In this document: one piece after another, positions 24,689 to 52,946 of the stretch
How the letters are laid out: each line of letters begins with the position of its first letter
Position numbering within the stretch: position 1 is the stretch's first letter
Source of the DNA: Mobula hypostoma
Taxonomy: Eukaryota
DNA: 64,000 nt
Assembly (NCBI RefSeq): GCF_963921235.1
Contig: NC_086097.1
Location: forward strand, 54,748,001-54,812,000
Direction of reading: 5' to 3'
The notes under the pieces: model-generated
Database searches by the model: none
Told to the model about the DNA's origin: nothing
The model's input: only the letters and a program-made list of their open reading frames with translations
Program-made: the position numbers and the translations under genes

Positions 24689-27651
24689 GTAAGTCCTGAT
24701 CTTCTGTTGCCGTCGAAACAGCTCCCTGTTACCCAGCCGTTTGTCCGGATCCCTCCTCCCTTCACCCCACCCCCGGCTCACGCCACTTTTGTTATGGCTT
24801 CTACTTTCCGGCCACTTCTTTCCCATTCATTCGGGGTCAAACTGTTCGATGAGCGTTGATTTCTCCGGACGCGGACACCGTGCCAGGAACGGGGGTAGGG
24901 ACCGTGCAGATACCAGCAGGAGAAAATGGTGGTGGAATTAGTATAAGAGGCCTATGTTATTGATCCCATAACGGCAGCTGGGGAATCCAAATTCTAGTAA
25001 TAAAGTAAATCTGAAGATGGATCAGTAGTGATAAGTTTGAAGCGACTATAGATCTGCTAACCTTGCCTGTTTTGGCGTGTATGTGACTCCAGAATGATTG
25101 AATTAAAACGGACACATCTGGGAATGATAGTTTTACCAATAGTGTCCAGTGAGTGAATTCAGAAACAATACTAAATACACATCACTTACAGACCTCAATC
25201 ACCAAACTCCACATGCTTCCTAACTCTCCTACCCACACCATCACTTCGGCACTCACATACGTCTCTTTACACTCTTCCCCTCCCATGCCACATCACTGAA
25301 ATTACCCTACTCTCTCCCCGGCACCTGCAGCCCAACCTGGCTCCTAAATCTACCTCCTTCCACACCAACCTCATGAATCAGCCTATGAGTTTGTTAAACT
25401 GGTGACTTCCGTCCACGGCAGATCTCTTTCTCCCTTCTTTCTAATTCCACTTGCCTAGAGTAGTTCTCTTCTCCCCCCCCCCCACCCACCATGTACCATT
25501 GAAAGTATCCTGCACAGCCGTCACCTCAGAAGCTGTTTCCAACCCAACCCCTCTAGATTAATTTTTTCTTCTTCTTGTAAGGTTTGATGATATTTGGTAG
25601 ACTAACGTAAGGTACACTTATGGCTACCTGCTGAGTTGGAGTGGAGCATAGAGACGGGAAATATAACCACTAAATTTATGATAGCAGTGATATCCTAACA
25701 AACTTTCCATCTTAAACTTTGTCTGTCCCAAAGGTCTCAATTTAGTAATTAGATGTTTCCTTTGCACCTCATGGGAACTTCATTCTAATAATACTGTATG
25801 CTGCACTGTTTTTTGACAAGTGCACTTCCTACAAATGCCGGTATCATGCATGCAAATTCTGAACAAGGAATTATTTAGCCTTGTGTGTCCAATACTTAAA
25901 TGTCTAATTATAAATTCTTCCACCTTTTTATACCCATCTCTCAGTTGAATTCCCTCCATCCTCTCAATTTTATATAAATGCCATCCTTACATTTCCTTAT
26001 CCCATCTTGATTGCCACAGTGATTGAATAGACTTTTTAATTGTGGCTTTCACCCCCCCCCATGTAAAATTTGTGTAGATATGTAAGAAGCCATAATGTCT
26101 GCCTTGCATATATTGCTGAACTACTTGTGCCACTGATATACAATCATTCTTCATCTTGATCTTTTCTTGAAGCCTTAAATTAACCAGAGACAAAGGGAGA
26201 CACTATGGAGGAGCAACAGAAAAGAATACACTGAGACCATAATCCACATTAAGCAACCCAAAATTTTGTGCCCATTCATTTCCCATCCACCCAAAAGTGG
26301 AAACCTTAGGAATGCAACGCTCTCAACACTCTACAAATGTTGCCGGTATTGGATGACCAACTTTAAGTCTTATTACGTTAATCCAATAAACCATTGGTAA
26401 CTGTAGCCTGTGTAGTTGGAAAAGTACTTCACCCATTTCTACCAGTAATGTTGAAAGTGGGATGATTTAATAACATAATCTCAATGCTTGAGCTTGAACT
26501 TTAAGACTGTTGGTGAGACTGACCCATAAGGAACATATCGATAAATCAAAGACATCTAATTAAAGAAATATACATTTGTTTGTGATCTCCTACTCATACC
26601 CCAGTCACACCTAACTAAGCATATTAGGGGCTTCTCTCTTTACACATCTCTAGAATTTTATTCACGTGCACTTTCCATGTTAGTCTTGTGTCCATGCACA
26701 TAATAGAAATTTTATCACTGACTGTTGTTTAAGAGATTCACCATATAACTTGAGGTCAATTCTGGGTGTAATGTTCCTTTTAGGAAAACAAACAACTTGA
26801 GCCTTTGCAACAGAAAATTTAAACCCCACTGACATCACCATTCCTCTACTTCATTAATAGCTGCCTACATTTTCCTAACTATATAATTTATATTCCTGCC
26901 TCTCTTCCACACTGCACCATCATTAGCATGCAATGATTTGGAAATGTCTGAGCGAGCATTTAAGCAAATATCATTAATCATAATATTAAAAAAGGAGTGG
27001 GCTACACTGTGGGGTCCCATTCTCTATCTCATACTCAAAGAATGTTGTTCCCAACCTAATGTATATCTTCCTATGACATGAAAAATCTTGAATCCAATTG
27101 AACATTGTATCACCTATTTCCATCTTTCCAATTTGAGCAGCAATCCTTGTGTCCATAAAATACCATAAACTTTCTCTACATAAAAGAAAACCGCTACCAC
27201 TGATTCTTTATTAACTTTCGCCTTACGAATATCAGACTCCAAATTTAACACCAAGTCCATGGTCGTTCTCTTTGTTTTGAAATCCAGTTTGGTATACAGC
27301 TAATTTCAACTACTTTCCACAAAATAAGAAAGCCTTGCTATAACCACTTGTTTCATTAACTTACATACAGGTGAAATTGGTGAAATAGGTCTGTAACTGA
27401 AAGGATCTGATTAATCCTTACCAGGTTTCAATATAGGGATAACAACCACTAATTTCCAGGAAGCAAGAAGTTGCCCTTCAACCCATATTGTGTGAAAGAA
27501 TTTCAAAACCAACATAAGTTTCGAATCCAATAACTGTGAACATGTTATAACAAAAACAACAGGAATTCTGCAGATGCTGGAAATTCAAGCAACATACATG
27601 AAAGTTGCTGGTGAACGCAGCAGGCCAGGCAGCATCTATAGGAAGAGGTGC

Positions 27652-27687
27652 AGTCGACGTTTCAGGCCGAGACCCTTCGTCAGGACT
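27652..27687 (-). ncRNA. Minimal type I hammerhead ribozyme
   Basis: Minus strand reads AGTC-CTGACGA-AGGGTCTCGGCCT-GAAA-CGTC-GACT. Confidence 0.85.
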
Positions 27688-27697
27688 AACTGAAGGA

Positions 27698-27733
27698 AGT
27701 CCTGACGAAGGGTCTCGGCCTGAAACGTCGACT
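27698..27733 (+). ncRNA. Minimal type I hammerhead ribozyme
   Basis: Stem I AGTC/GACT, CUGACGA box, stem II AGG/CCT, GAAA box, palindromic ACGT in place of stem III, GUC cleavage triplet. Confidence 0.85.
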
Positions 27734-29565
27734 GCACCTCTTCCTATAGATGCTGCCTGGCCTGCTGCGTTCACCAGCAACTTTGATGTATGTTATAACA
27801 AATATCACCTTTCCCAGGTGATGTCTGACCAGCACCATTAATAGTCCTTTTACATTCAAACAATGTAAATTCAACATCCAAGCAGAAACTGGAGCATTCT
27901 TTTTTTCTCAGCAATCTGAGGAATGCTTGCCAAAACTGATTCTCTATAAGACCACTCTTCTTTACTTAAATTGGCCAAACTATGTACACTGACATACGTT
28001 TTTACGAATAATCCTGCTTTTTCAGAGTCAGTAACTGCAACCTTCTCCCCACCATACAAAACCGGTAATGCATCAAGTTTTCTAACTCCCCCCATTTTCT
28101 GTATCATATCCCAAACTTCCCCAATTTGGGTCTCTTTCCCAATGCTATCACAGTATGGTCTCCGATACTTTTTCTTTGCCCTTCTCATTACTTTTCTAAC
28201 TATGGCTTGAGCTGTGTTATACATATAAAAGATGAATAGGAGTAACACTAAAAGCTTTATTCCGCACCTTCACAGCTCCTTTTCCTTCATCTGTCCATCA
28301 GGGAACAGCTCTCCTTTTATTATCTCCCAGTAATCTGGGGATTGATTCCTTAGCTATTGAGTTGAATGCAGAGCACAAGGTATTATTACTCAACTCAATA
28401 TCCTCCTAAACCAAATGATCCGGAAATATACTTCCACATAAATAATCAAATACATCCCAATTTGCCTTATAAGATTCCATCTGGAGATATGAGAACCTTT
28501 GATACACATCAAAGTTTCAAAGTACATTTATTATCAAAATATCTGTACAGTACACAAAGCAGGCAGCCACAAAACAAAGAAACACCTGGAACCCATTTAA
28601 AGAAGACATCAAACGCCCAACGCATGAAAAGAAAAAACAAATTGTGCAAACAGCAAATATCAGACAGAATATTAAATATCGAGCTACAGGGTCCCCGAAA
28701 TGATCCAGGAGTGACAGCCTGAAGTCAATTCAGTTCAGCACTATGTCGATGACTGCAGACTTCAGCCACAAAGCCAGATCTGTACCAAAGCACCTCAGTC
28801 AAATTGTGCAAATATATGCTTCCTAGTTACACATATTTGCTATATCCTTAGATATCAGCATAGGGTCTATAGCAGAAACAGTGCTATTAAATAAATTTAT
28901 CCTGTGCTCTTACTATCATTCAAGCACACCAAACACCTTCCAGAAAGTCTTCCACCAACATTCCATTCACATTTGTGTCACTACAATCCTACGTAGCACT
29001 ATGAGCATTAAAATTCCCACACCATATAATCTTATTTTTCTTGCTTTACTATTCTTTCCCCAAATTTCAACCATAACTGGCTCATAAACAACTCCAATTT
29101 CTGTAACTCTTATGTGCTATTCCATTTTTGACAAAGGGTAGCCACTCATCCATTACCCATTTTCCAATCAACATAAACCTGTATCTTAAAACTTCGACAA
29201 GATTTCAACCAGATTTCCTGTACACATACAACATGAGGCATATTTGGTAAAGCTTCAATAAATGTCTTAAATTCTTGATCATTAGCTAACAGGCTTCTAG
29301 CATTCCATTGTAAGATTACAGGAACCATAAACAACCCTACTTTGAAATCAGAACATTATTTACTACTCTTGTAAGGCATCATCAATAACTTCCAGAGTAA
29401 AGTCTTTTACCTCTAGATGCTTTCCTTCAGCTTTTAATATAATTTATTTTCTTCTGTCCCACTTATAGTTTGTGCTGTACAGTTTACCACATCTGCCATG
29501 AAAGTAACAAACTTTAGTGTATCAACAGTCAGCCAATCCTTTGTTATATATTCAAGCACTTTACA

Positions 29566-29698
29566 TGGTCGTGAAGAAGAGTCTCAGCCCGAAACGTTGA
29601 CTGTTTACTATTTTCTGTAAATGCTGCATGACCTGCTGAGTTCCTCCAACATTTTGTGTGTGTTGCTTTGGATTTCCAGCATCTGAGGAATTTCTTAT
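29566..29698 (+). mobile_element. Older solo PLE 3' end with degenerate hammerhead
   Basis: ggtcGTGAAGAagagtctcagcccGAAAcgttgact followed by the family tail ...ttccagcatctg. Confidence 0.75.
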
Positions 29699-31414
29699 CT
29701 TTGTGATGCATTTTACACACTGTCTTTAATCTATCTGTATTCGGGATATTAATAGGTCCCGTTGACACTGTCTTTTGTACTTTCTGCAGAGTCTCTGCAT
29801 ATGACATACCCATTTCCACTCAAACACGTTGCACTTCCACAGCTTTCTTATATACAGGACAACCTGCTTAAGCTCCCCTGCTTATGTTCCCCTCCAAAGT
29901 TGCTACATTTTAGGTTAATGCCTTCACAATTGCCATAATCATGTTCTCCACCACATCTAGCACACCACTTTTTAGCTGTACACACAGCTGCTACATGGCC
30001 AAACTTGTTGCATTGAAAACACCTCAGATGAGGCAGCATATCCACTAGAACCACAATAGTCCAAATTAACCATATCCAGCAACTTTTTCCATCAAATTTA
30101 ATCAACACCAATAAGCTATCTATTCTTAGTCCACCACAAAAACTTCTAAATCATTTTACCATCTGCAAATTTTCTCCCAACTAAATTGTTTTTAACTTAC
30201 TCAGTGGATACATCTAGAGGCACTCCAGAGATTACTACCAAAGCCATTGTTGTTCATTATATATCCTTGGTGTTCCTCCTTCCCACAGTTATTAATCCCA
30301 GAGTTTCCTCATGTTGCTTACTGTCTTTGCAAAATACTAAGAGTGCCCCATCTCTTAAAGGTCTTGAGACCCCAATATCTCCTAATACTTTTTTCAGATC
30401 CTTAGTTTGGATTGATAGCAGAAAGAGGTCCACATTTGCAAGTCATTCTTTCTTTCATTTAAATCCCGACTATTGCCTTTGTCACTAGGTGATACGTAAA
30501 CCACTACAGTCCTCAATCAGCCACTTATTTTTCGTTTCCCAGAAACAGGCCATTCACCTTTCTCCATACAGCTCCTATCACCCAATACCACTTCCTGTTC
30601 GTTACCTCCATCTTCTCTGTTGCTTCCTGCATCTCTAACCACTCTCCCCCACTTTCTGCCTGAGAGCCACTTCCAACAGCAGGCTCAATCCTATGCTCCA
30701 ACCCCAATCATTCAACCAAGCCTCGTGCGTGTTATTGGCTGCAGGCAGGAAGAGCATCCCTCCAGAAAGCTCCTTGCATCCTGATTAAATTATTTTTCCA
30801 TTCATCCATTTTAAATTGTGGCCAATTTAGCAGGCTTTAATTTGAAACTTCCATTTTAACAGTAAGTCATAAAAGCCATTCATTTCTCCCACCAGCTTGT
30901 CCCTTTTCTCATCCAGTCCCTCCTCTTTCCTTGGGAATGTACTCACCCTATTTTAATTATAATTGGTTCATGACCTTTGCTCCATTTTGCTACTTAGTAC
31001 ATCAATCAGTATACACAGGGAATAAATATCCATCATCCTTTTGGGTGGAGAATTACAAAAGCTTATGACCCCATAAGTAAAGAAATTTCTTCACTCACGA
31101 AGCCGGGCTCTAAGGAAAGGGATGAAGAGTGAAGTCAGCCAGAGTGATAGCAATAAGGAACTTGATAGTAGGGCTGTCTGAGAGGGGAGGATGAGCAGAA
31201 AGTGGTTGTGGTCCATATAGGTACCCATTACATAGACAGGAGCAGGGATGAGGTCCTGCAAAATGATTTTGGGAAGCGAGGTAGAAAGTGAAAACGCAGG
31301 ACTTGCAGGGTTGTTATCTCAGGATTACTGTCCTGGCCATGTGCTAGTGAGGAGAGAAATAAATACATAGTGCAGTTCAATGTATGGCTAAGGAGCTTGT
31401 GCAGGAAGGAGAGC

Positions 31415-31612
31415 AACGCACACAAAATGTTGGAGGAACTCAGAGTACAGTCAACATTTTGGGCTGAAACCCTTCGGCAGGACAAAGGCTCCCAAGGGGT
31501 ATCAACCCGAAACATCGAGTGTACTCTTTTCCTAGATGCTCCCTGGCCTGTGGAGTTCCTCCAGCATTTTGTGCATGTTGCTCGGATTTCCAGCATCTGC
31601 AGACTTTCTCAT
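31415..31612. mobile_element. Older palindromic mini-PLE inside a CR1 ORF1 fragment
   Basis: Inverted arms cacaaaatgttggaggaactc / gagttcctccagcattttgtg with decayed hammerheads; tail present on the right arm only. Confidence 0.75.
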
Positions 31613-32474
31613 GTTTGTGGCAGGAAGAAGGGCTTCAGTTTTATGAATCATTGGGCTCTCTTCCAGGACAGGTGGAATCTCTATAAACAAAACAGTTTGC
31701 TGCTGAACTGGAGAGGAACCAATATCCTGGCCAGGAGTTTTGCTAGTGCTGCCCAGGAGGGTTTAAACTGGAGTGATGGTGAGATGGCAACAGGTGGTAG
31801 AGTTGAGGGCAAGAAAGATGGTATGACAAATAAGATTGAAAAGAGTAAAACCAATAGCCAAACAAGTAAACATAGTGGAATTGAATGGCTGAAATGTGTT
31901 TATTTCAACACTATTTGGGGAGGAAGATGAACTTAGAATCTGGATCAGTACATGGAATTACAATGGTGGTAAGGTGAGGAGCAACTTTTTTATGCAGAGA
32001 GTGGTAGGTGCCTGAACTGGTTTACCAACAATAGTAATGGAATTATTACGTTTTGTGGAGTTTAACAGACTTTTAGATAGATACATGAATATGAAGGGAA
32101 TGGAGGGTTATGGATGAAGACATCTATTATAAATAGGCATCAAGATTGGCAATAGAGTAAATGACCTACCTACTGCTGTACTGTTCTATGTTTAAACATT
32201 CAACCCCTTAGCCTGAAACTGCCTTCCTTAATTTTAAAATATCCAGACAGGAAACTTTGTAACGTTTATGTTGTTAGGAATAAACAGAATTTAGAATAGT
32301 TGATAGGTGGTTTTTACGCAGAGAGTGGTGTGTGCGTGAAATGGGCTGCCGGCGACTGTGGTGGAGGCGGATACAATAGGGTCTTTTAAGAGGCTTCTGG
32401 ATAGGTACATGGAGGTTAGAAAAATAGAGGGCTATGGGTAACCCGAAGTAATTTCTGAAATAAGTACATATTAG

Positions 32475-33558: not shown

Positions 33559-36500
33559 CAGTGGTGCTAGAAAGTTTGTGAGCTCTAGAATTTTCTCTAT
33601 TTCTGCATGTGACCTAAAATGTGATCAGATCTTCCTAAAGTCCTAAAGAGAACCTGATTAAGTAAATAACACAAAAAACATACTTGTTCATTTATTTGAG
33701 AAAATGATCCAATATTACATGTATTTGTTGGAAAAAGTATGTGAACTTTTGCTTTCAGTAACGGGTATTGACCCCCTTGTACAACAATAACTTCAACCAC
33801 ACATTTCCAATAATTGTTGATCAGTCCTGCACATTGGCTTGGAGGAACTTTAGGCCATTCCTCTTTACAAAACTGCTTCAACTCTGGGATGTTGGTGGGC
33901 TTCCTTGCATGAACTGCTTGCTTCAGGTCCTTTCACAACATTTCTATCGGAATAAGGTCGGGACTTTGACTCAGCTATTCCAAAACACGGATTTTCTTCT
34001 TTCTAAACCATTCTGTTGTTAATTTACTCTTGTCTTTCAGATCATCTTGTTGCATTGTCCAACTTCTATTAAGCTTCAGGTGACAGACTGCTACCCTGAC
34101 ATTCTCCTGAAAAGTGTCTTGATACAATTTTGAGTTCATTGTTCCCTCAACAATTGCAAGCTGTCCAGGCCCTGAGGCAACAAAGCAGCTCCAAACCACC
34201 ATGCTTCACAGTTGGGATGAGGTTTTGGTACAGGTTTCCCCCGCCATCCGAAGGTAGCGCGTTCCTATGAAACGGTTCGTAAGCCGAAATGTCGTAAAGC
34301 GAAGAAGCAATTACCATTTATTTATATGGGAAAATTTTGTGAGCGTTTGCAGACCCAAAAATAACCTACCAAATCTTGCCAAATAACACATAAGACCTAA
34401 AATAACAGTAACATATAGTAAAAGCAGGAATGATATGATAAATACACAGCCTATATAAAGTAGAAATATTTCTCTACAACGATTGCACAGATCTCCGTAG
34501 CGAAAATCTCATGCAAGTGCTCTCGGCAGAAAATCTCACGCAAGCGCTGTTGGCATAAACGGCTCTCCAGTAACCTTTAAACTATGAAGCTGCCAGATCT
34601 ACCAAATAACACGTAAAAATACACAGCCCATATAAAGTAGAAATAATGTATGTACAGTGTAGTATCACTTACCGGAATTGGGAAAACAGCGCCGAGCACA
34701 CTGATGATGGTGTGTTAGACTGAGTCGTCGCAGGTTGGGGTGGTGCAGTGGCCCCCACCCTCCAGGCCGCCGACCGATACATTGCCGCGAAGAACACAGC
34801 GGTAGCCAGGAGGCACACAGCACATCTTTAAGAAAAAAGCCGAAATAAACGAGCTAATTAATTAGATTCTGCCTAGCACGTAACTGTTGGCCCAGATCAG
34901 AGGGGACTGCCGATTGCATCGCCTCTGATCTGGGCCGACAATTACGTGCTAGGCAGCACCTAATTAATTAGCATGTTTATTTCGGCTTTTTTCTTAAAGA
35001 TGTGCTGTGTGCCTCCCAGCTACCACTGCACTCTCCGCGAATCGGTACAGTATTCGGGGCCTGCGGGTTGGGGTGGTGGGACACGGGGGTGTTATTTCAT
35101 CGTCGATCAGGGCAGGCAGCTAATTTTCTCCTATGACTGCCTGCCTCGATGTCGAAGGTCGAGGTTCGTCGTCTGCTGTGGCTGATGTGGAAGGCTTGCT
35201 TGACTGCTGAGCCTCGCGCATTTTTCTATCATACAGTTGTTTGTAAGCACCCAAACCATCCTGCAAATATCCCCTAAACCTGCGTACCCTTTCAAAATTA
35301 AAGTCGTACTTTATCATTGCAGCGAGAATCTCACGCAGTTGCTTCACGTTCAGTTCGCTGCTGCATTCAGTTTCAATTGTTATCCTTTCTTTTTCCAATT
35401 GCATCAGCTCTTCATCTATCAGTTCTTGGTCATAGGATGCCAAAACCTCTTCAACATCATCTTCGTCAGCTTTCACAAGCCAAACTCACTTTGTCCTTGC
35501 TTCGTTCACCACGATCAAAATGCTTAATTATGTCTAGTTTTACGCTAAGTGCAACACCCTTACTCTTTCAGGCTTTTCAGACACCTTAGAACTCATCTTG
35601 CAAACGGCTGCTCACAGGCACATGTTTAAGCAATGCCATTCCGAATCCGGGGGAGAGCGGCTGCTCGGGGCGCGCGCTGATTTTTTATCACGCACTGCCT
35701 TTCTGCGTAACAGTGAAAACACCTTCTGAAAGCGATAACAGGGTACTAATGTAGGTCTTTCATAACAGTGAGGTTTCGTAAAGTGAATGTTCGAAAAGCG
35801 GGGAACACCTGTATTGGTCTGCAGTGTCCTTTTTCCTCCAAACATAGCAATGTGCATTTCTGCCAAAAAGTTCAACTTTTGTCTCATCTGTCCACAGAAT
35901 ATTGTCGCAGAAGCATTGTAGAACACCCAGGTGGTGTTTTGCAAATGTGAGATGTGCAGCAATTTTTTGTTTTGGAGAACAGCGGTTTTCTCCGTGGTGT
36001 CCTTCCATGAACACTGTTCTTCTTCAGTGTTTTTCTTATAGTGGACACGAACAAAGACCTTAGTAATTTGTAGGGATTTCTGCGATCTTTTGCTGCTACC
36101 CTTAGGTTCTTTTCCACCTCCTTCATTGCACGTTGTGCTCTTGGTGTGATCTTTGCAGGATGTCCACTCCTAGGGAGAATAGCAACAGTACAGTGTTTCC
36201 TCCATTTGTAAACAATGTTTCTTACTGTGGACTGATGAACACTCGGGTCTTTAGAAATGCTTTTGTGGCCTTTTCCAATTTCATGCTTCTCTATAGTTCT
36301 TCTAAGATCCTCTGAAAGATGTTTTGATCAAGGCATGGTGCACATAAACAGATCTTTCTTGAGACAAGCAGGCTCCGTCAGTAACCTGACTTTGTGTGTC
36401 TTTTTTTATAAGGCAGGCCACCTCTACAACCCACATGCAATCTCAACTCATTGATTGGAACACTTGACTCCAAATAGCTTTTGTAGAAGGCATTACCCCA

Positions 36501-37924: not shown

Positions 37925-38064
37925 AGTTAGTCCTGACGAAGGGTCTCGGCCTGAAACGTCGACTGCACCTCTTCCTACAGATGCTGCCTGGCCTGCGCGT
38001 TCACCAGCAACTTTGATGTGTGTTGCTTGAATTTCCAGCATCTGCAGAATTCCTGTTGTTTGCG
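37925..38064 (+). mobile_element. 140-bp solo PLE 3' end
   Basis: 13-bp TSD TTTATAACAAATT (37912-37924, 38065-38077); same family as 49370-52414. Confidence 0.93.
37929..37964 (+). ncRNA. Minimal type I hammerhead ribozyme
   Basis: Identical 36-mer to 27698-27733. Confidence 0.85.
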
Positions 38065-38454
38065 TTTATAACAAATTTACTGTTTGTTCACACACCATTA
38101 CTTCCTTAGGAATACAGTTGCTCTTGCTTTTGTTCCATTTTATTGATTACTGTTTAAGATGATTTCAGCAGTTTCTGAAGTTGCTCTCTACCACTTTCCT
38201 TGAGCAGTTAGATATGGACAATAAATGTTACCACTAAAATCCTCTTCCCATAAACGGATGAATAAAAGTTTAGAAGTAGAACATTTGTGAGTCAACAATT
38301 GCTGATTTGCACTGAGACTTGTAATCCTGACTGATACTATAGCACAGTACTAAGCTAAGAATTTACCATTTAATGTTACATCCTTTCCTCAAGAGTCTGG
38401 AATAGGACAAGAATCATCCCATAATGAAACTAGTTCTTACATAGTATCTTAATC

Positions 38455-39805: not shown

Positions 39806-40251
39806 ATGCAGATTAAAAACTTGAATCTTAGAGAATAAGCAGCATTGGGAAGGAATTTCAAAACAATGGCTCTATCAGCTGAATGTTTGCAGCAGGGGAG
39901 GGGTGGAGGAAACACCAGATTTTCAGAGTCCTTTAGCTTGGGGAGGGTGAGATGTTACCCTGGATGTATAATTGAATATACAAGCATCTGACCAGAAGTT
40001 CATGCTCCCGTGTGAATCAAGCTGATGGAAAAGAACATTTCAGTCTTTCAGAAATATCTCTTTAAAATTAAAGCTCTCATTTTCTCTTCTTTTTATGCAG
40101 ATTTTATCTTTTGAAGATGCATGGTGAATTGTCTGTGCAGCCGTTGGATGAAATGGTCCCATTGTGACTTACCAAATCCTAGATCATATATTTTGCCATT
40201 CGGTTTGCTGAAATACTGATGTCCTGAATGAATCCAGCTATCTGAAGGTTA

Positions 40252-41604
40252 ATGAAAGCAATGTCACATCAAACAGGAGCAGCAGCTCATAACTTGGATG
40301 TAAAACCCAAGGATGGCCAGGGGAAAAATATTGATCGTAGGGATGGTTATGCTTGGAGTGGCAAGAAACGTTCACGCACTTCCAAGATAGATACTAGTTC
40401 AGATGGTGAGGTTGGGGATGTTGCTGGCATATTGTCGATAACTCCGAGAAGGGAGAGGAAATGGAGTTCCCCTGTGCCTGATCTGGATCTTGAAGATTCA
40501 TGTTCTCGCAAGCTTTCTAGTCGATCACTGAAGCAAAAGATACAAGATGCAGTTGCTCAGTGTTTTCCCCTTAAGGCGAATAATCATAAAAACTCTGTAG
40601 CTTTAATTTCAAAAAGTAAAATCCACATTAATGATCTAGTCAATAGTTGTCCGTTTCCAGCTGGAATGGAGCTGGCTGAAAAATGGGACTTAATTAATTG
40701 GCATACAATTCCATTAACTCAAAACTGTGACATTTGGGAAGGCTCAGCAGTAGGATTTGGTGAAGAAGAGCCGGGAGAAGGATGCAGAATGAGTGTTGAA
40801 CTGGAGGTGAATCCATCAGATACACAGATTCACAACCTGGAAGTGATTTCTCGGATTAATGCATTACACGGACAAGACTCTGAGGTGGAGTCTGGAATAA
40901 CTGAATTAGCAGGTGACAGTGGTATTACATTTCCGTCAAATGATTCAGACTCTGACGAGGAGCTGATGGCTCTTTTCACAGACACTGAAAGTCAGGCAAA
41001 TACCAAGCTGGATTTTGAGAATGAGTGCAATTGGCTAACACCATTTCATAAATGCCAGGCTCAGTTCGGCTTCACCTACTGCTTAGTCCCAGATCTATTT
41101 CGGATCAGTAATAATCCGTGTTACTGGGGTGTAATGGATAGATATGGAGCTGAGGCTCTGTTAGAAGGTAAACCAGAAGGTACGTACTTGCTGAGGGACT
41201 CTGCTCAGGAGGATTATCTCTTCTCTGTCAGCTTCAGACGTTACAGCCGCTCTCTTCATGCTAGAATTGAACAGTGGAATCATAACTTCAGTTTTGATGC
41301 TCATGATCCCTGTGTTTTTCATGCACCAAGTGTAACAGGCCTCTTAGAACATTACAGCGACCCAAACTCATGTATGTTCTTTGAGCCACTGTTGTCGCTT
41401 CCACTAAACAGGACTTTTCCATTTTCACTTCAGCATCTTTGCAGAGCTGTCATTTGCAGCCACACAACCTATGACGGTATTGGTGCTCTTCCTGTACCAC
41501 CATCAATGAAAACCTACCTGAAGGAGTATCACTATAAACAAAAAATAAAAGTACTTAAGATAAGTACACAACAATGGCATAGTGGATTGAAAGGAAACTA
41601 TTGA
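40252..41604 (+). CDS. SOCS4: Suppressor of cytokine signaling 4 (single coding exon; acceptor at 40100)
   Basis: 450 aa; SOCS4-type N-terminus (DRRDGYAWSGKK, RSLKQKIQDAVAQCFP); SH2 domain (YWGVMDRY...LLRDS); SOCS box (FSLQHLCR...YLKEYHY); WDHD1 adjacency favours SOCS4 over SOCS5. Confidence 0.96.
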   Translation: MKAMSHQTGAAAHNLDVKPKDGQGKNIDRRDGYAWSGKKRSRTSKIDTSSDGEVGDVAGILSITPRRERKWSSPVPDLDLEDSCSRKLSSRSLKQKIQDAVAQCFPLKANNHKNSVALISKSKIHINDLVNSCPFPAGMELAEKWDLINWHTIPLTQNCDIWEGSAVGFGEEEPGEGCRMSVELEVNPSDTQIHNLEVISRINALHGQDSEVESGITELAGDSGITFPSNDSDSDEELMALFTDTESQANTKLDFENECNWLTPFHKCQAQFGFTYCLVPDLFRISNNPCYWGVMDRYGAEALLEGKPEGTYLLRDSAQEDYLFSVSFRRYSRSLHARIEQWNHNFSFDAHDPCVFHAPSVTGLLEHYSDPNSCMFFEPLLSLPLNRTFPFSLQHLCRAVICSHTTYDGIGALPVPPSMKTYLKEYHYKQKIKVLKISTQQWHSGLKGNY

Positions 41605-43809
41605 AGGTTACAAGAAAGATTAAGAAGGATCACCAGGAGCTTCTCTCCACCATTAAAAAAAACTTGGAACAGTTTTAAATAGGAGATTACTGGTAATAAT
41701 TTTCTCCCATCAGAAATTTTGTTTGAAGACTGTTAACTTCCATTCTTTATTCATGTGCTTGTTATTTTTTCCATCTCAACAGTGCAATGAAACATAATGT
41801 ACCTTGTCTGATCTGACAAATCATTTGTGCTTATCTTCTACAGTCCATGACATTTTGGCGTTTTTGCCAGTAATATATTCTAGTGTCATGTTGGAATGCA
41901 GTTTCAAGACAATGAATTTGTTTCTGAAGCCATGACCATCACGCTAAAGTGTACGTTTAGAAGTTCACGAAAATGTTGGCATGTGTATCAATTTTATTTG
42001 CACTTTAAAAGACGTTCATATATCTAATTTTCTAAGTTATCTGATGCTTTAAGTATGTGACATACACTATTGCAATGTAATTTTTAAATTAATTTTGAGT
42101 AAAACCTCTGAGAGAAATATTGTTCTTATGTTTTGTATTGAATTATGCAACTTGTAAGTCAAGTATTAGTATATCCAACATTGACAAGTATCCATCTTTA
42201 TGTTGTAATCCCCAAACAGTCCAACAAATGGTTAGGGAAGCAACTTTCTAAATGAGAAGGATTAGAGGATACTTGACGAGGACACCCTTCAGTTTTTAGA
42301 CATTCAGGCAGAGCTCCAGAAGATGACAGTAACATGGTATCACCTAAACTTGCAAGAGTTTTTTTTAAATATATATGTGTTTCCGGTGACAGCACTTACC
42401 ATTTCACTTTGTAGATCGTGTTTTATTTCATCAAAACATTGTGCTGAAATATTTTTCATCTGGCCCCATTTTTTTTGGATCACTTTGCCTTATTCTTTGG
42501 CACGCATGCATTAAAGACCATAAGATATATAGGAGCAGAATTAGGCCATTTCATCATGGCTGATCCATTTTCTCTCTCAGCCCCAACCTTCTGCCTTCTC
42601 CACATATCCCTTCATGCCCTAACCAATCAAGAATCTAGCAACCTCTGCCTTAAATATACATCAAGATTTGGCCTCCATAGCCACCTGATGCAATTAGTTA
42701 AACAGTTTCACCACGCTGTGGCTGAAGAAATTTCAACTTATCTTCATTCTAAAAGGACGCCCCTCTATTCTGAGGCTGTGTCCTCTAGTCCTTGACACTC
42801 CCACCATAGGAAACTTTCTCTCCATATCCACTCCATCGACGCCTTTCAACATTTGATAGGTTTCAATGAGTTCCCCCTCATTCTTCTGAATTCTAGCGAA
42901 TACAGGCCAAGAGCCATCAAACGCTATTCATTTGACAAGCCATTCAATCCTGAAATCTCTTTTGTGAACCTCCTTTGAACCCTCTCCAGTGTCAGCACAT
43001 CCTTTCTAAGATAAGGGACCCAAAACTGCTCACAATGCTCCAAATGAGGCCTCACCAGTGCTTTATAAAGCCTCAATATTATATTCTATTCTTCTTGAAA
43101 TGAATGCTAATATTGCATTTGCTTTCCTTGCCACCGACTCAATCTTAATGAGCCAGATTTGATAAGGGAACTTGAGATAAAGGAGCCATTAGGAGGTAGT
43201 GACCATAATATGGTAAGTTTTAATCTACAATTTGAGAGAGAGAAGGGAAGATTGGAAGTGTCAGTATTACAGTTGAACAAAGGGGATTATGGACACATGA
43301 GGGAGGAGCTGGCAAAAGTTGACTGGAAAGATACCCTAGCAGGGATTACAGTGGAACAACAATGGCAGGTACTTCTGGGAATAATACAGAAGATGCAGGA
43401 TCAGTTCATTCCAAAGAGGAAGAAAGATTCTAAGGGGAGTAAGGGGCGACCATGGATGACAAGGGAAGTCAAGGACAGTATAAAAATAAAAGAGAGGAAG
43501 TATAACATAGCAAGGATGAGTGGGAAGCCAGAGGATTGGGAGACTTTTAAGGAGTAACAGAAGTTAACTAAAAAGGCAATACGAGGAAAAGATGAGGTAC
43601 GAAGGTAAGCTAGCCAAAAATATAAAGGAGGATAGTAAAAGCTTCTTTAGGTATGTGAAGAGGAAAAAATTAGTTAAGACCAAAATTGGGCCCTTGAAGA
43701 TAGAAACGGGTGAAATTATTATGGGGAACAAGGAAATGGCAGACGAGCTGAACAGGTACTTTGGATCTGTCTTCACTAGGGAAGACACAAACAATCTCCC
43801 AGATGTAAT

Positions 43810-45049
43810 TCCTTCTCACAATTCCTCCGTCTCCGCCGCATCTGCTCTCAGGATGAGGCTTTTCATTCTAGGACGAGGGAGATGTCTTCATTTTTTAAAG
43901 AAAGGGGCTTCCCTTCCTCCACTATCAACTCTGCTCTTAAACGCATCTCCCCCATTTCACGTACATCTGCTCTCACTCCATCCTCCCACCACCCCACTAG
44001 GAATAGGGTTCCCCTGGTCCTCACCTACCACCCCACCAGCCTCCGGGTCCAACATATTATTCTCCGTAACTTCCGCCACCTCCAACGGGATCCCACCACT
44101 AAGCATATCTTTCCCTCCCCCCCTCTCTCTGCATTCCGCAGGGATCGCTCCCTACACAACTCCCTTGTCCATTCGTCCCCCCCATCCCTCCCCACTGATC
44201 TCCCTCCTGGCACTTATCCGTGTAAGCAGAACAAGTGCTACACATGCCCTTACACTTCCTCCCTTACCACCATTCTGGGCCCCAAACAGTCCTTCCAGGT
44301 GAGGCATCACTTCACCTGTGAGTCGACTGGGGTGATATACTGCGTCCGGTGCTCCCGATGTGGCCTTTTATATATTGGTGAGACCCGACGCAGACTGGGA
44401 GACCGCTTTGCTGAACATCTACGCTCTGTCCGCCAGAGAAAGCAGAATCTCCCAGTGGCCACACATTTTAATTCCACATCCCATTCCCATTCTGACATGT
44501 CTATCCACGGCCTCCTCTACTGTAAAGATGAAGCCACACTCAGGTTGGAGGAACAACACCTTATATTCCGTATGGGTAGCCTCCAACCTGATGGCATGAA
44601 CATTGACTTCTCTAACTTCCGCTAGGCCCCACCTCCCCCTCGTACCCCATCTGTTACTCTTTTTTATGCACACATTCTTTCTCTCACTCTCCTTTTTCTC
44701 CCTCTGTCCCTCTGAATATACCTCTTGCCCATCCTCTGGGTCACCCCCCCCCGTCTTTCTTCCTGGACCTCCTGTCCCATGATCCTCTCGTATCCCCTTC
44801 TGCCTATCACCTGTCCAGCTCTCGGCTCCATCCCTCCCCCTCCTGTCTTCTCCTATCATTTTGCATCTCCCCCTCCCCCTCCAGCTTTCAAATCCCTTAC
44901 TCACTCTTCCTTCAGTTAGTCCTGACGAAGGGTCTCGGCCTGAAACGTCGACTGCGCCTCTCCCTATAGATGCTGCCTGGCCTGCTGCGTTCACCAGCAA
45001 CTTTGATGTATGTTGCTTGAATTTCCAGCATCTGCAGAATTCCTGTTGT
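43810..45049 (+). mobile_element. 5'-truncated Penelope-like element inside the plus CR1
   Basis: ORF 43882-44625 with Cys-rich linker and VIYC...YIGET endonuclease; 13-bp TSD TCCCAGATGTAAT (43797-43809, 45050-45062). Confidence 0.95.
44918..44953 (+). ncRNA. Minimal type I hammerhead ribozyme
   Basis: Identical 36-mer in the PLE 3' pLTR. Confidence 0.85.
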
Positions 45050-47769
45050 TCCCAGATGTAATGGTGGCCAGAGGACCTAGGGTAACAGAGGTACTGAAGA
45101 AAATTCACATCAGGCACAAAATGGTGTTGGGTAAACTGATGGGACTGAAGGTTGATAAATCCCCAGGGCCTGATGGTCTGCATCCCAGGGTACTTAAGGA
45201 AGTGGCTCTAGAAATCGTGGACGCATTGGTAATCATTTTCCAACGTTCTATAGATTCAGGATCAGTTCCTGCGGATTGGAGGGTAGCTAATGTTATCCCA
45301 CTTTTTAAGAAAGGAGGGAGAGAGAAAACAGGCAATTACAGACCAGTTAGTCTGACATCAGTGGTGGGGAAAATGCTGGAATCAATTATAAAAGATGTAA
45401 TAGCGACATTTTTGGATAGCAGTGGCAGGATAGGTCCAAGTCAGCATGGATTTACGAAGGGGATATCATGCTTGACTAATCTGGAATTTTTTGAGAATGT
45501 AACTATGAAAATGGACATGGGAAAGCCAGTGGATGTAGTGTACCTGGACTTTCAGAAAGCCTTTGATAAGGTCCCACATAGGAGGTTAGTGTGCAAAATT
45601 AGAGCAAATGGTATTGGGGGTAGGGTACTGAGATGGATAGAAAATTGGTTGGCAGACAGGAAACAAAGAGTAGGGATTAATGGGTCCTTTTCAGAATGGC
45701 AGGCAGTGTCTAATTAGTTATGAGAATGCAGGGTGACTTGGACAGGTTGGGTGAGTGGGCAGATGCAGTTTAATGTGGATAAATGTGAGGTTATCCACTT
45801 TGGTAGCAAGAACAGGAAGGCTGATTACTATCTGAATGGTGTCAAGTTAGGAAAAGGGGAAGTGCAACGAGATCTGGGTGTTTGTTCATCAGTCACTGAA
45901 AGTAAGCATGCAGGTACAGCAGGCAGTGAAGAAAGCTAATGGCATGCTGGCCTTCATAACAAGGGGAATTGAGTATAGGAGCAAAGAGGTCCTGCAGTTG
46001 TACAGGGCCCTGGTGAGACCACACCTGGAGTATTGTGTACAGTTTTGGTCTCCAAATTTGAAGAAGGACATTCTAGCTATTGAGGGAGTGCAGCATAGGT
46101 TCACGAGGTTAATTCCCGGGATGAAGGGACTGTCATATGTTGAAAGATTGGAGTGACTGGGGTTGTATACACTGGAATTTGGAAGGCTGAGAGGGGATCT
46201 GATTGAAACATATAAGATTATTAAGGGATTGGACACGCTAGAGGCAGGAAACATGGCCCCGATGTTGGGGGAGTCCAGAACCAGAGGCCACAGTTTAAGA
46301 ATAAGGGGTAGACAATATAGAACGTAGTTGAGGAAAAGTTTTCACACAGAGGGTTGTGGTTCTGTGGAATGCTCTGCCTCAGAAGGTAGTGGAGGTCAAT
46401 TCTCTGGATACTTTCAAAAAAGAGTTAGATAGAGCTCCTAAAGATAGTGGAGTGAAGGGATATGGGGAGAAGGCAGGAAAAGGGTACTGATTGTGGATGA
46501 TCAGCCATGATCACAGTGAATTGTTTTGCTGGTTTGAAGGGCTGAATGGCCTACTCCTGCACCTATTTTCTATTGTCTAACCTGCAAATTAATCTTTAGG
46601 GAATCCTGCACAAGGACTCCCAAGTCCCGTTGCACCTCAGATTTTTGAATTCAGTAAATAGTCTACCCTTATATTTCTTCTACCAAAGTGCATGACCGTA
46701 CACTCCCCAACACTATTCCATCTGCCACTTCTTTGCCCATTATCTGAATCTGCCCAAGTGGAAAATTGTCCATACTGATGTTTTTGCCCAACTACACCGA
46801 TCCCTTTTGCCTGCATTATGTCTGTATCCCATTCTTTGTCCATTCAAGTACTTACTTAAATCTCTTAAACATGATGTTTATCATAGAGCTGAAAAGCACA
46901 GATACAAACACTTTGGCCCACTACATCCATGCCTACCTTTTTGTATTCTTATTTTTATTAGTTCCTCTGGCAGTAACTTCCAAATATCAATTATTCAGTC
47001 TAAAAAGGTTTGCCTCAAATTCTGTTGTAACCCCTTTCCTCTCATCTAAACCCATGCCATCTTAGTTCTAATGCCCCTACCATGGCAAAAAAAGGATTCT
47101 GATGATTTACCATATCTATGCTTCTTGTGTACCTCTATCAGATCATCTTCAGCCACCTTTACCTGCTTGCGAACACTATTGTTAATTAATCATTGATTCT
47201 CGCGTGAGTTGCCATTCAGGTTCAAATATATAGTCAAAATATATATATATTTCATTCGCTGCTGTGCTCCCTCCTGAAAGGATTCTGAGAAGAAAGGACA
47301 AGCATCTCTAATGCAGCTTTCACTGGCCAACATTTGTACAGGATAGGGAAGGATAGAGACTGCATTCAGTTGTGTGATTCCTTGCAACTTTTTGCTTGCA
47401 CTTCAGTAGCTTTTTCACAACACTTACTAATTTTCTTCTTTCAGGATTTTTTTATGATTACAGAGTTTTATATTTTGAAATATTGTCACTGTTGTCGTAA
47501 AGCAAATATGATACTCAGTTGCATAAGCCAAGCATCTATAAATATAGATCTTAATAATTAGTTTTAGTAATTGAGACTGAACATACAACATACACAGCAT
47601 AGGAACAGGCCCTGTGATGTTGTGCTGAATCAACATGAGCCTAATTAAAACAATTCCCTCTGGCTGCACGTAAGGAAAGGTAGCCAGGACACCCATGATA
47701 GAGTTTAACCTCCATCACCGACGCCCCACCCACCAACAGCTGCAGCAGACCTGCCTGCAGGGATATTGC

Positions 47770-48650: not shown

Positions 48651-49432
48651 GCAACTCACACTGCACTGGCAATGTACCAACAAAGAGAGAAAAAAGCAAC
48701 TTCCGTGGACCTTCATCCTTTCTCGTCAAAACCTGGTCACTCTTCGCAATGTCCACTCACACAATGCCTGCTCTCCTTACACCTCGTGTCTTCATTGCCC
48801 TGTGCCGAGTGCCTGATCGATCGTTATGATTGCAACCCGCAGAAAAGTCTCAAAAGGCTCTGAGCCCCTGTGAAACCTCATGCACCTCAGCCAAACAAGT
48901 GAGTGCTTGCAATGATTGAAGCCCGCCGAAAAATTGCAAAAGCATTGCTGTAACTCACCTAAAATGTTTTCAATAAATGTGCAGTTTTCTTTACTCTGTA
49001 GCTATAAATCAGACACTTATTCAATCCATGATGTCAATCTTCCTAAAATGTATTTTATAAAGTTGTTGCTACTGTCATTTCAAATAAAGCCAAATATTTG
49101 ACTTAGCCCAATTTCCTGTGATCACATCTGCCAGGAATTATGTTTTTGCCATTTAAAATTTGACATGCAGAATCACTAAAGTAACTTAGAAACGAAACAA
49201 CATTGAAATGCTCTTGTGAGGATGGAAAGGGAAGCTTTTAGGTTATCTCTAAAGTCTGGATTATTGATTAAGAGATCAATGTAGCATCACTTCATATATC
49301 CCAAAATAATACCCTACTTGTAAAACAAATCTCTATTGACATTTAGAGAAGAAATAAGTTCTATATTGAGCAACACACATCAAAGTTGCTGGTGAACGCA
49401 GCAGGCCAGGCAGCATCTATAGGAAGAGGCGC

Positions 49433-49468
49433 AGTCGACGTTTCAGGCCGAGACCCTTCGTCAGGACT
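49433..49468 (-). ncRNA. Minimal type I hammerhead ribozyme
   Basis: Identical 36-mer on the minus strand. Confidence 0.85.
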
Positions 49469-50701
49469 AACTGAAGGAAGAGTGAGTAAGGGATTTGAAA
49501 GCTGGAGGGGGAGGGGGAGATGCAAAATGATAGGAGAAGACAGGAGGGGGAGGGATAGAGCCGAGAGCTGGACAGGTGATAGGCAAAAGGGGAATCGAGA
49601 GGATCATGGGACAGGAGGTCCGGGAAGAAAGACGGGGGGGGGGTGACCCAGAGGATGGGCAAGAGGTATATTCAGAGGGACAGAGGGAGAAAAAGGAGAG
49701 TGAGAGAAAGAATGTGTGCATAAAAATGAGTAACAGCTGGGGTACGAGGGGGAGGTGGGGCCTAGCGGAAGTTAGAGAAGTCAATGTTCATGCCATCAGG
49801 TTGGAGGCTACCCAGACGGAATATAAGGTGTTGTTCCTCCAACCTGAGTGTGGCTTCATCTTTACAGTAGAGGAGGCCGTGGATAGACATGTCAGAATGG
49901 GAATGGGATGTGGAATTAAAATGTGTGGCCACTGGGAGATTCTGCTTTCTCTGGCGGACAGAGCGTAGATGTTCAGCAAAGCGGTCTCCCAGTCTGCATC
50001 GGGTCTCACCAATATATAAAAGGCCACATCGGGAGCACCGGACGCAGTATATCACCCCAGTCGACTCACAGGTGAAGTGATGCCTCACCTGGAAGGACTG
50101 TTTGGGGCCCTGAATGGTGGTAAGGGAGGAAGTGTAAGGGCATGTGTAGCACTTGTTCCGCTTACACGGATAAGTGCCAGGAGGGAGATCAGTGGGGAGG
50201 GATGGGGGGGACGAATGGACAAGGGAGTTGTGTAGGGAGCGATCCCTGCGGAATGCAGAGAGAGGGGGGGAGGGAAAGATGTGCTTAGTGGTGGGATCCC
50301 GTTGGAGGTGGCGGAAGTTACGGAGAATAATATGTTGGACCCGGAGGCTGGTGGGGTGTTAGGTGAGGACCAGGGGAACCCTATTCCTAGTGGGGTGGTG
50401 GGAGGATGGAGTGAGAGCAGATGTACGTGAAATGGGGGAGATGCGTTTAAGAGCAGAGTTGATAGTGGAGGAAGGGAAGCCCCTTTCTTTAAAAAATGAA
50501 GACATCTCCCTCGTCCTAGAATGAAAAGCCTCATCCTGAGAGCAGATGCGGCGGAGACGGAGGAATTGCGAGAAGGGGATGGCATTTTTGCAAGAGACAG
50601 GGTGAGAAGAGGAATAGTCCAGATAGCTGTGAGAGTCAGTAGGCTTATAGTAGACATCAGTGGATAAGCTGTCTCCAGAGACAGAGACAGAAAGATCTAG
50701 A

Positions 50702-51985
50702 CCTAATCAGTTCCCCTCTACCACCACTCTGCTCCGTCTAGCAGAATTAGTCCTTACTCTTAATAATTTCTCCTTTGGCTCCTCCCACTTCCTCCAAACT
50801 AAAGGTGTAGCTATGGGCACCCGTATGGGTCCTAGCTATGCCTGCCTTTTTGTTGGCTTTGTGGAACAATCTATGTTCCGTGCCTATTCTGGTATCTGTC
50901 CCCCACTTTTCCTTCGCTACATCGACGACTGCATTGGCGCTGCTTCCTGCACGCATGCAGAGCTCGTTGACTTTATTAACTTTGCCTCCAACTTTCACCC
51001 TGCCCTCAAGTTTACCTGGTCCATTTCCGACACCTCCCTCCCCTTTCTAGATCTTTCTGTCTCTGTCTCTGGAGACAGCTTATCCACTGATGTCTACTAT
51101 AAGCCTACTGACTCTCACAGCTATCTGGACTATTCCTCTTCTCACCCTGTCTCTTGCAAAAATGCCATCCCCTTCTCGCAATTCCTCCGTCTCCGCCGCA
51201 TCTGCTCTCAGGATGAGGCTTTTCATTCTAGGACGAGGGAGATGTCTTCATTTTTTAAAGAAAGGGGCTTCCCTTCCTCCACTATCAACTCTGCTCTTAA
51301 ACGCATCTCCCCCATTTCACGTACATCTGCTCTCACTCCATCCTCCCACCACCCCACTAGGAATAGGGTTCCCCTGGTCCTCACCTACCACCCCACCAGC
51401 CTCCGGGTCCAACATATTATTCTCCGTAACTTCCGCCACCTCCAACGGGATCCCACCACTAAGCACATCTTTCCCTCCCCCCCTCTCTCTGCATTCCGCA
51501 GGGATCGCTCCCTACACAACTCCCTTGTCCATTCGTTCCCCCCATCCCTCCCCACTGATCTCCCTCCTGGCACTTATCCGTGTAAGCGGAACAAGTGCTA
51601 CACATGTCCTTACACTTCCTCCCTTACCACCATTCTGGGCCCCAAACAGTCCTTCCAGGTGAGGCATCACTTCACCTGTGAGTCGACTGGGGTGATATAC
51701 TGCGTCCGGTGCTCCCGATGTGGCCTTTTATATATTGGTGAGACCCGACGCAGACTGGGAGACCGCTTTGCTGAACATCTACGCTCTGTCCGCCAGAGAA
51801 AGCAGGATCTCCCAGTGGCCACACATTTTAATTCCACATCCCATTCCCATTCTGACATGTCTATCCACGGCCTCCTCTACTGTAAAGATGAAGCCACACT
51901 CAGGTTGGAGGAACAACACCTTATATTCCGTCTGGGTAGCCTCCAACCTGATGGCATGAACATTGACTTCTCTAACTTCCGCTAG
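50702..51985 (+). CDS. PLE RT + GIY-YIG ORF, 5'-truncated but uninterrupted
   Basis: QTKGVAMG, YIDD, LPFLD, VYYKPT RT motifs; CKRNKCYTC linker; VIYC...YIGET...RFAEH...LEEQ endonuclease. Confidence 0.92.
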   Translation, partial: PNQFPSTTTLLRLAELVLTLNNFSFGSSHFLQTKGVAMGTRMGPSYACLFVGFVEQSMFRAYSGICPPLFLRYIDDCIGAASCTHAELVDFINFASNFHPALKFTWSISDTSLPFLDLSVSVSGDSLSTDVYYKPTDSHSYLDYSSSHPVSCKNAIPFSQFLRLRRICSQDEAFHSRTREMSSFFKERGFPSSTINSALKRISPISRTSALTPSSHHPTRNRVPLVLTYHPTSLRVQHIILRNFRHLQRDPTTKHIFPSPPLSAFRRDRSLHNSLVHSFPPSLPTDLPPGTYPCKRNKCYTCPYTSSLTTILGPKQSFQVRHHFTCESTGVIYCVRCSRCGLLYIGETRRRLGDRFAEHLRSVRQRKQDLPVATHFNSTSHSHSDMSIHGLLYCKDEATLRLEEQHLIFRLGSLQPDGMNIDFSNFR

Positions 51986-52279
51986 GCCCCACCTCCCCCT
52001 CGTACCCCAGCTGTTACTCATTTTTATGCACACATTCTTTCTCTCACTCTCCTTTTTCTCCCTCTGTCCCTCTGAATATACCTCTTGCCCATCCTCTGGG
52101 TCACCCCCCCCCCCGTCTTTCTTCCCGGACCTCCTGTCCCATGATCCTCTCGTATCCCCTTTTGCCTATCACCTGTCCAGCTCTCGGCTCTATCCCTCCC
52201 CCTCCTGTCTTCTCCTATCATTTTGCATCTCCCCCTCCCCCTCCAGCTTTCAAATCCCTTACTCACTCTTCCTTCAGTT

Positions 52280-52315
52280 AGTCCTGACGAAGGGTCTCGG
52301 CCTGAAACGTCGACT
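52280..52315 (+). ncRNA. Minimal type I hammerhead ribozyme
   Basis: Identical 36-mer in the 3' pLTR. Confidence 0.85.
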
Positions 52316-52946
52316 GCGCCTCTTCCTATAGATGCTGCCTGGCCTGCTGCGTTCACCAGCAACTTTGATGTGTGTTGCTTGAATTTCCAGCATCTGCAGA
52401 ATTCCTGTTGTTTGAGTTCTATATTGAAGTGGATTTTATAGTATACAATGTCAGTACAGATTTGCTGCTAATTTTGTGCTCAGGGCTAATCTAAAATGGA
52501 TATTTAAAACTAATGAAAGGTGAAAACCAGCAAACTGTATTGTTACTACTGATTTTCAAAACACTCAACAGGGAAAGGACAAATGATGCAGAATGCAGGA
52601 GAATGAAGAGGTTTCTGTTCTCCCATTGTTTTAATCTAACAAGGAAATCTGCCTCAGAAAAATTGCAAACCTAACTCATTTCCTATAATGAATCAAGGTG
52701 AGAAATAATAAAAGTTGGCTTGCCCTTTGGAATTTTATAGGCTGGCCAATTCCCTATATACAGTACATCATTTTACATATTAAACTCATTATCTCAAATC
52801 CAATTTTAATTTGAGACAAACATCTGTAGATTTCACAAATTTACAATTATTAAAACTAAATAACCAATGCACTTAAATTATTTAAAGTACTTTTAATTAT
52901 AAATATTTTTTAAAAAATAAGTTTTACTTTTCCTTAATCATCATTT

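Follow-up and report, generated by a model that had tools for sequence, protein, structure and literature searches.

The window analysed here is a stretch of 64,000 nucleotides from Mobula hypostoma (NCBI RefSeq assembly GCF_963921235.1, contig NC_086097.1, positions 54,748,001 to 54,812,000 of the forward strand). It carries six identical copies of a 36-nucleotide sequence (36-mer) that is almost certainly a minimal hammerhead motif located in the pseudo-long terminal repeat (pLTR) of a young, massively amplified Penelope-like element (PLE). The motif is real, was correctly identified by the initial annotation, is known in kind and is exceptional in number; its cleavage is predicted. The role of PLE hammerheads is described as an open question (Craig 2021, bioRxiv 10.1101/2021.04.23.441226). 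As the family is young and its near-identical insertions number in the tens of thousands, this role can be tested through the breakpoints of the copies. The data favour mostly uncut templates and point toward a second, short template class; the explanation that probably accounts best for the whole is a motif that would cut weakly as a dimer, with copies made from uncut RNA of two kinds.

An abundant motif in a young element

A scan of the window recovered all six 36-mers at the positions and on the strands given by the initial annotation (Table 1). They belong to four insertions, two of which are head-to-head pairs, and each of the four is bordered by a 12-13 bp target duplication. The decayed relatives that had also been claimed were found, seven of them (at 16479, 23386, 29567, 31449, 53568, 53736 and 55896) with 4-8 substitutions each; the one at 56576 is present but more decayed than the other seven, with one extra base. 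In the genome (3.48 Gb), the exact 36-mer has 32,886 matches, i.e. about 1 per 106 kb, and a reversed-pattern control has 0, which bears out the very large copy number anticipated from the window. A looser pattern (intact core, stem II, palindrome, H17) has 81,230 matches, a large scale even though this kind of motif is known. Furthermore, when a structure-based descriptor of minimal hammerhead ribozymes (min-HHRs) was applied to 1.94 Mb of retrieved DNA enriched for the motif, it gave 177 matches, all from one sequence family; after shuffling of this DNA, it gave 0. The abundance of the motif is far beyond chance.

The special invariance attributed to the 36-mer does not hold. Indeed, the motif is not unusually invariant, because the adjacent downstream 36-mer is commoner, with 55,132 exact genome copies. 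The hammerhead 36-mer contains four CpG and the downstream one a single CpG, and the former is lost first under 5' truncation. The window copies are 98-99% identical across up to 1.3 kb, and the apparent invariance reflects the youth of the element. The search with covariance models that the initial annotation had proposed was run with Rfam and gave 16 matches in the window at E<=10, none of them to a hammerhead family. Such a miss is expected for a hammerhead motif devoid of helix III.

As claimed, the motif lies in the terminal repeat of a PLE. The element is endonuclease-bearing (EN+), encoding a reverse transcriptase (RT), a linker and a GIY-YIG endonuclease (EN). The element unit is 3,516 nt long, with one open reading frame (ORF) of about 1,017 aa that encodes the RT, a CX4CxxC linker and GIY-YIG. 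Among the copies with long open frames, located by protein search, L043 encodes ~1,017 aa counted from the first Met of the family, with DKG, YIDD, the CX4CxxC linker and GIY-YIG, and P0001 has a single ORF with an RT, a C-terminal GIY-YIG and CX4CxxC between them. Among 1,526 homologs, a protein of the shark Chiloscyllium punctatum ranks first, with 71% identity across 76% of the region used as query, which points to a cartilaginous fish as the likely host; the top homologs carry RT-type domains. L045 is arranged as pLTR-ORF-pLTR with two hammerheads on one strand, L281 comprises two tandem units with a spacing of 3,516 nt, and partial tandems place one hammerhead on either side of the ORF, which starts ~160 nt past the predicted cut. 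Since the ORF-start 30-mer has only 590 exact genome copies, nearly all copies are 5'-truncated. The hallmarks of EN+ PLEs are all found, namely pLTRs from partial tandems, an inverted 5' arm, a 30-40-nt tail and a target duplication, and the Neptune-type CX2-5CxxC linker between RT and EN is present as CX4CxxC.

Positions along the element are given as q coordinates, counted along the + strand copy 50701-52414, in which the hammerhead starts at q1580 (52280) and the predicted cut falls after q1611 (52311); q1678 and q1714 correspond to 52378 and 52414. One locus, L282 (contig C2, 157813500-157819499, minus strand, ~1999-3030), is a tandem of 310-nt units with four hammerheads, whose units begin at q1578, two bases 5' of the hammerhead, and end 181 nt into the ORF region; by its layout, it resembles a non-LTR retrozyme and may be a natural dimer substrate. 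Five others (L177, L213, L222, L223 and L280) contain short direct repeats that fuse part of the ORF start to part of the pLTR, with varied junctions, as expected of template jumps. Related families occur in other data sets, since contigs assigned to three organisms cover the pLTR part of L045 (L045:4063-4900) far deeper than the ORF start. A metagenome scan gave 3 distant loci (best segment 33-55%) and no distant relatives for comparison of the stems.

Structure, variants and predicted activity of the motif

The initial annotation had correctly recognized a minimal hammerhead of type I in which ACGT takes the place of stem III: the order of the core and the palindrome both fit. In the position numbering of PMC4209133, which is used throughout, the core CUGANGA...GAAA...UH occurs in order, helix III is reduced to a palindrome (ACGT in 177/177 descriptor matches), helix I has 4-5 bp and helix II an extra 5' nucleotide. 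The prediction of a cut after GUC is likewise supported.

A census of 323 copies within 9 substitutions comprised 229 with the young tail, 44 with the main older tail, 46 unclassed and 4 in two minor classes. Several waves of amplification, as suggested by the initial annotation, are apparent, but the older core is mostly CTGATGA, not CTGAAGA: position 7 in the 44 older-tail copies is T in 26, C in 10, A in 7 and G in 1. Position 11.1 is T in 188/229 young copies and C in 26/44 older ones, where C is the commonest letter and goes along with the older-young marker; the young T turns the G10.1-C11.1 pair into G-U or into a shifted A-U register. At position 6, the A6C form has 3,069 genome matches versus 1,097 for A6G plus A6T together. 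It is a subfamily, because most of the 16 local A6C copies have a common upstream flank; its core is CTGCYGA, and some of its copies follow an endonuclease remnant. An older PLE subfamily has thus spread carrying an A6C core. In two other hammerheads, the A6C change reduces cleavage in Mg2+; it is also known as a natural variant that keeps residual activity (PMC7151607; PMC3088659).

Elsewhere, the motif keeps the same commonest letters in the young and older classes (remaining core positions, stem I, palindrome and C17), variation lying in loop II, positions 7 and 11.1, CpG decay and single changes. The covariation of stems I and II that had been looked for among subfamilies was not seen, with unchanged stems and no compensatory change in those sampled. 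In older families, the motif stays 250-370 nt behind the endonuclease. Across 29 endonuclease-anchored copies with diverged 3' untranslated regions (UTRs), its mean identity is 0.84 versus 0.59 upstream and 0.71 downstream, a figure biased upward because the motif was located by similarity and 23 further endonuclease matches had no motif in range.

The monomer is predicted to fold as a rod (-11.7 kcal/mol) in which the core GACG pairs with CGUC, with a stability not exceeding that of shuffles (z 0.08). For the dimer, the minimum-energy fold is predicted to be 18.8 kcal/mol more stable than the active-like one (nearest-neighbour energies only). Under this model the motif would cut only weakly as a dimer; dimer cleavage itself is suggested by analogy with the class to which the motif belongs.

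Where copies end

The breakpoints were drawn from 543 unique matches to the window copy, of which 243 are young (at least 93% identical), tail-bearing and free of locus-edge cuts; 167 of these come from loci picked by tail patterns, blind to the hammerhead. Two variant columns are off by one base, so that a few starts at q1597-1604 and q1623-1630 may shift, the counted windows being unaffected. The 3' ends are bimodal, near q1678 and q1714, i.e. ~66 or ~102 nt beyond the predicted cut, and 66 of 78 inverted pairs combine one long and one short tail.

The 5' ends of the 167 tail-selected copies pile up at the edge of the motif: 64 of the 135 copies at risk stop in q1575-1589 (-5 to +9 of the first base of the motif), versus 19/154 in q1590-1604, 6/160 in q1605-1619 and 5/71 in q1560-1574. 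At the predicted cut +/-3 (q1609-1615), only 1/157 stops, and two additional copies outside this set start at q1612 and q1613. The edge stop falls at the same place for the two tail types (37/74 short-tail and 27/61 long-tail copies). Many solo copies ending at this edge directly adjoin the target duplication, and duplications of 9-16 bp occur in 37/110 solo copies. Older families with a different upstream sequence often end at the same edge (39/80 in a crude pyrimidine test). Genome-wide patterns, which required two foreign flank bases and, for q1581, a stricter body, counted 2,339 starts at q1581 (motif base 2), versus 461 at the cut and 242 at q1616, a control position 4 nt beyond it. Starts are therefore concentrated at the 5' edge, and any preference for the cut, measured against this one control, is mild at best. 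Judging from these breakpoints, uncut templates very probably dominate, most copies being made from RNA that the hammerhead had left uncut.

Directly 5' of the hammerhead, positions 52258-52281 contain a branch-point-like sequence, a pyrimidine tract and two AGs, resembling a 3' splice acceptor; they overlap a TCAGT that we take to be initiator-like. A splice acceptor as the cause of the 5' edge was rejected: the solo copies have no common upstream exon, the entire 3' UTR is 70-88% pyrimidine, and spliced copies were not found among the solo copies examined. An intron end made of a pyrimidine tract plus AG is described in D. virilis (PMC4209133).

Two proposed classes of template

Long copies behave differently from the bulk. 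Of 76 copies anchored at the ORF start, 33 carry at least 1 kb of ORF; 25 of these extend as far as q1590, the other 8 ending downstream of it. Only 1 of these 25 stops in q1575-1589, versus 64/135 above (p=1.4e-5). Among short-ORF copies at risk (de-duplicated n=22), 7 stop in q1575-1589 and 14 in q1560-1589. In inverted pairs (one duplicate row removed), 1/33 arms whose partner extends past q1540 stop at the edge, as against 47/70 of the remaining arms. As the length of the partner arm splits the cases in this way, the stop belongs to the event and not to the site alone. Both contrasts suggest two template classes, and it is slightly favoured that one would consist of short RNAs starting at the hairpin base and the other of long RNAs, either read-through or circular.

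In the mechanism proposed, the protein of the element would nick the target and prime reverse transcription internally, at two sites 3' of the ribozyme, often once per strand, thus generating head-to-head pairs. Short RNAs with a 5' end at the hairpin base, arising either from transcription start in the pLTR or from trimming back to a protected hairpin, would give run-off copies of 100-140 bp, scarcely more than the ribozyme, whereas long read-through or circular RNAs would give long copies and partial tandems. Because the short RNAs would yield ribozyme-sized copies, tens of thousands of intact motifs would have been scattered in the genome as passengers, decaying afterwards. A model in which the transcription start ends every copy was rejected, since long copies pass the edge. 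An elaborated version appears unlikely: short RNAs beginning at the foot of the hammerhead (giving strong-stop-like insertions of 100-140 bp), end-less circles made by the ribozyme (giving long copies and partial tandems), and the palindrome joining two RNAs to produce head-to-head pairs. If true, it would provide genome-scale evidence on the action of PLE hammerheads in vivo.

Alternative explanations

The edge could also result from a single RNA class, if the RT fell off after copying the hairpin and the end of the complementary DNA (cDNA) folded back, mainly early in synthesis. The base of the predicted rod coincides with the pile-up, the stop is set by position and not by cDNA length, and the older families share the edge despite their different upstream sequence. 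However, near-full-length copies pass the hairpin, the p-value above applying at a constant stop rate and rising to 0.016 when the rate is scaled to the lower baseline of long copies, and the fold has no advantage in stability over shuffles; this explanation is rather unlikely. Alternatively, the ribozyme could be an efficient dimer-cutting processor, as put forward in PMC4209133, whose cleavage would yield unit-length circles templating long copies and partial tandems. The maintenance and (upward-biased) conservation of the motif behind the endonuclease, the long copies that traverse it without a 5' end and the mild excess of starts at the cut agree with such a processor, and, as regards the long class, it is compatible with the two-template explanation. 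Nevertheless, it is doubtful: the local sample shows no peak at the cut, the active-like dimer is energetically distant in the nearest-neighbour prediction, the youngest subfamilies have U at 11.1 where PMC4209133 gives a conserved G10.1-C11.1, and the A6C subfamily spread although A6C lowers Mg2+ cleavage elsewhere (PMC7151607).

These features, i.e. the A6C subfamily, the G-U at 10.1-11.1, the self-inhibiting GACG/CGUC pairing and the lack of compensatory change, could even indicate that the motif is no longer a ribozyme and is kept solely as a protein-binding, promoter or RNA-pairing signal; in addition, 8/9 Xenopus dimers were not cleaved in vitro (Li 2026, bioRxiv 10.64898/2026.07.22.740005). 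This is improbable, given the letters retained at all other core positions, stem I, palindrome and C17 in young and older copies, and given the residual activity of A6C as a natural variant.

Several points weigh against the explanation preferred here, that of a weakly cutting motif copied from two kinds of uncut RNA. The pair contrast would also be explained if both arms ended together. A stop restricted to early synthesis predicts about 5-6 of the 25 long copies, and the single one seen (p=0.016) only weakens this alternative. In 26 partial tandems, the 5' repeat compared with the 3' repeat shows a total of 153 differences in 11,642 columns, the recurrent ones being few and largely CpG, which is compatible with circular and read-through templates alike. 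Starts at the cut are ~1.9x those at one control position, so that some cleaved templates may serve. Contig C1 and loci selected by pattern supply most of the samples. As to the element itself, the Pfam matches (RVT_1, E 4e-5; GIY-YIG, E 3e-4) are both below the curated cut-offs, and the linker would mark Neptune or Nematis, a clade call based on a motif and not on a tree.

Features of the window

Table 1. PLE copies and hammerhead motifs in the window (positions of the 64,000-nucleotide stretch)
Position	Strand	Description
16376-17084	-	Older-family copy: endonuclease remnant, then decayed hammerhead 16479-16514
23327-23421	-	Older short copy; decayed hammerhead cut off at 5' edge
27554-27794		Head-to-head mini-insertion; ~12-bp target duplication
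27554-27699	-	Long-tail arm of the mini-insertion
27652-27687	-	Exact 36-mer
27698-27794	+	Short-tail arm of the mini-insertion; begins at first base of hammerhead
27698-27733	+	Exact 36-mer
29567-29703	+	Older short copy; starts at hammerhead
31449-31617		Older inverted mini-pair; (-) motif 31449-31484 with CTGCCGA (A6C) core
37925-38062	+	Solo copy, 138 bp; starts 4 bases 5' of hammerhead; 13-bp target duplication
37929-37964	+	Exact 36-mer
43811-45050	+	5'-truncated PLE copy inside an RT-coding LINE (long interspersed nuclear element) fragment; 13-bp target duplication
44918-44953	+	Exact 36-mer
49369-52414		Insertion; 13-bp target duplication at its borders
49369-50701	-	Inverted arm paired with 50701-52414; short tail
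49433-49468	-	Exact 36-mer
50701-52414	+	5'-truncated PLE copy: C-terminal half of RT, CX4CxxC linker, GIY-YIG endonuclease (stop at 51985), pyrimidine-rich 3' UTR, hammerhead, long tail
52280-52315	+	Exact 36-mer: stem I AGUC/GACU, core CUGACGA, extra A, stem II GGG(U)/(G)CCU, GAA, palindrome ACGU, predicted cut after 52311
53470-53788		Older head-to-head pair; decayed hammerheads 53568-53603 (-) and 53736-53771 (+)
55801-56611		Older-family inverted insertion with endonuclease remnant; decayed hammerheads 55896-55931 (-) and ~56576-56612 (+)

Within the span of the exact motifs, an uninterrupted 452-aa frame (40246-41604, +) with SOCS (PF12610), SH2 and SOCS-box domains is a host SOCS4/5-type gene unrelated to the Penelope element. 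The window also contains an LTR retrotransposon (4001-8351, -), whose 287-bp repeats are 95% identical and whose frames for RT, RNase H and integrase are broken by stops or shifts. Decayed LINE 3'-end copies, presumably CR1-like, occur at 14144-14769, 38498-39808, 42750-43084, 45007-46580 and 61606-61979, the fourth including a frame (45007-45714) with an RVT_1 match. Finally, a 121-bp inverted repeat (34786-35039; 88% complementary, 12-bp spacer), with a weak mir-15 score below the gathering threshold, is possibly a miniature inverted-repeat transposable element or another head-to-head insertion.

Comparison with known elements

The motif class, the dimer model, the inverted arms, the tail and the dominance of uncut templates in vitro are already published. 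The present analysis adds the passage of near-full-length copies and long-partner arms beyond the edge of the motif, and the older subfamily with an A6C core. A literature search on cartilaginous fishes, covering titles and the beginnings of abstracts, with repeat libraries outside its scope, found no description of this family.

In fishes, Xena, Poseidon and Neptune PLEs are reported to carry min-HHRs (Cervera & de la Pena 2014, PMC4209133); the portion of that study considered here names no cartilaginous fish. Like the metazoan PLE motifs described there, the Mobula motif is of type I, lacks helix III, has a palindromic 15.2-16.2 and a short helix I, bears an extra nucleotide between 9 and 10.1, lies in pLTRs, and occurs mostly as single motifs on truncated copies or as opposite-strand pairs 100-700 bp apart. 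However, its copy number far exceeds the 4,000 of coelacanth and the 9,000 of Xenopus, its helix II has just 3-4 bp, and its youngest subfamilies have G-U at 10.1-11.1, besides the A6C subfamily. It is very uniform, like that of D. virilis, whereas most motifs in PMC4209133 are highly variable.

A tail with two internal RT starts has been published for PLEs (Craig 2021, bioRxiv 10.1101/2021.04.23.441226; PMC11167929). Poseidon PAc of Anolis carolinensis (Frangieh 2024, PMC11167929) has, as found or proposed for the Mobula element, two such starts, a 30-40-nt tail downstream of the hammerhead, and uncut RNA as main template. In Anolis, ribozyme mutants leave in vitro insertion unaffected, cleavage needs the protein, and RNA-seq ends at the cut were not found, according to the same source, whose available portion reports no pile-up of 5' ends at the ribozyme edge such as that seen in Mobula. 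The PAc ORF starts inside stem II, unlike the Mobula ORF, and Penelope and Poseidon lack the CX2-5CxxC linker.

This linker, the C-terminal GIY-YIG and DKG are common to the Mobula protein and the Neptune/Nematis EN+ PLEs (Craig 2021), and the elements share partial tandems, an inverted 5'-truncated arm and a one-ended tail. Unlike those of Neptune/Nematis, the Mobula insertions examined lie in ordinary AT-rich DNA, with target duplications of 9-16 bp. Lastly, short tandems such as L282 are like the non-LTR retrozymes (Li 2026), whose monomers bear hammerheads and derive from pLTRs, and the one chondrichthyan genome included in that work had such arrays. Retrozymes form tandem arrays, whereas the copies of the window are dispersed truncated insertions.

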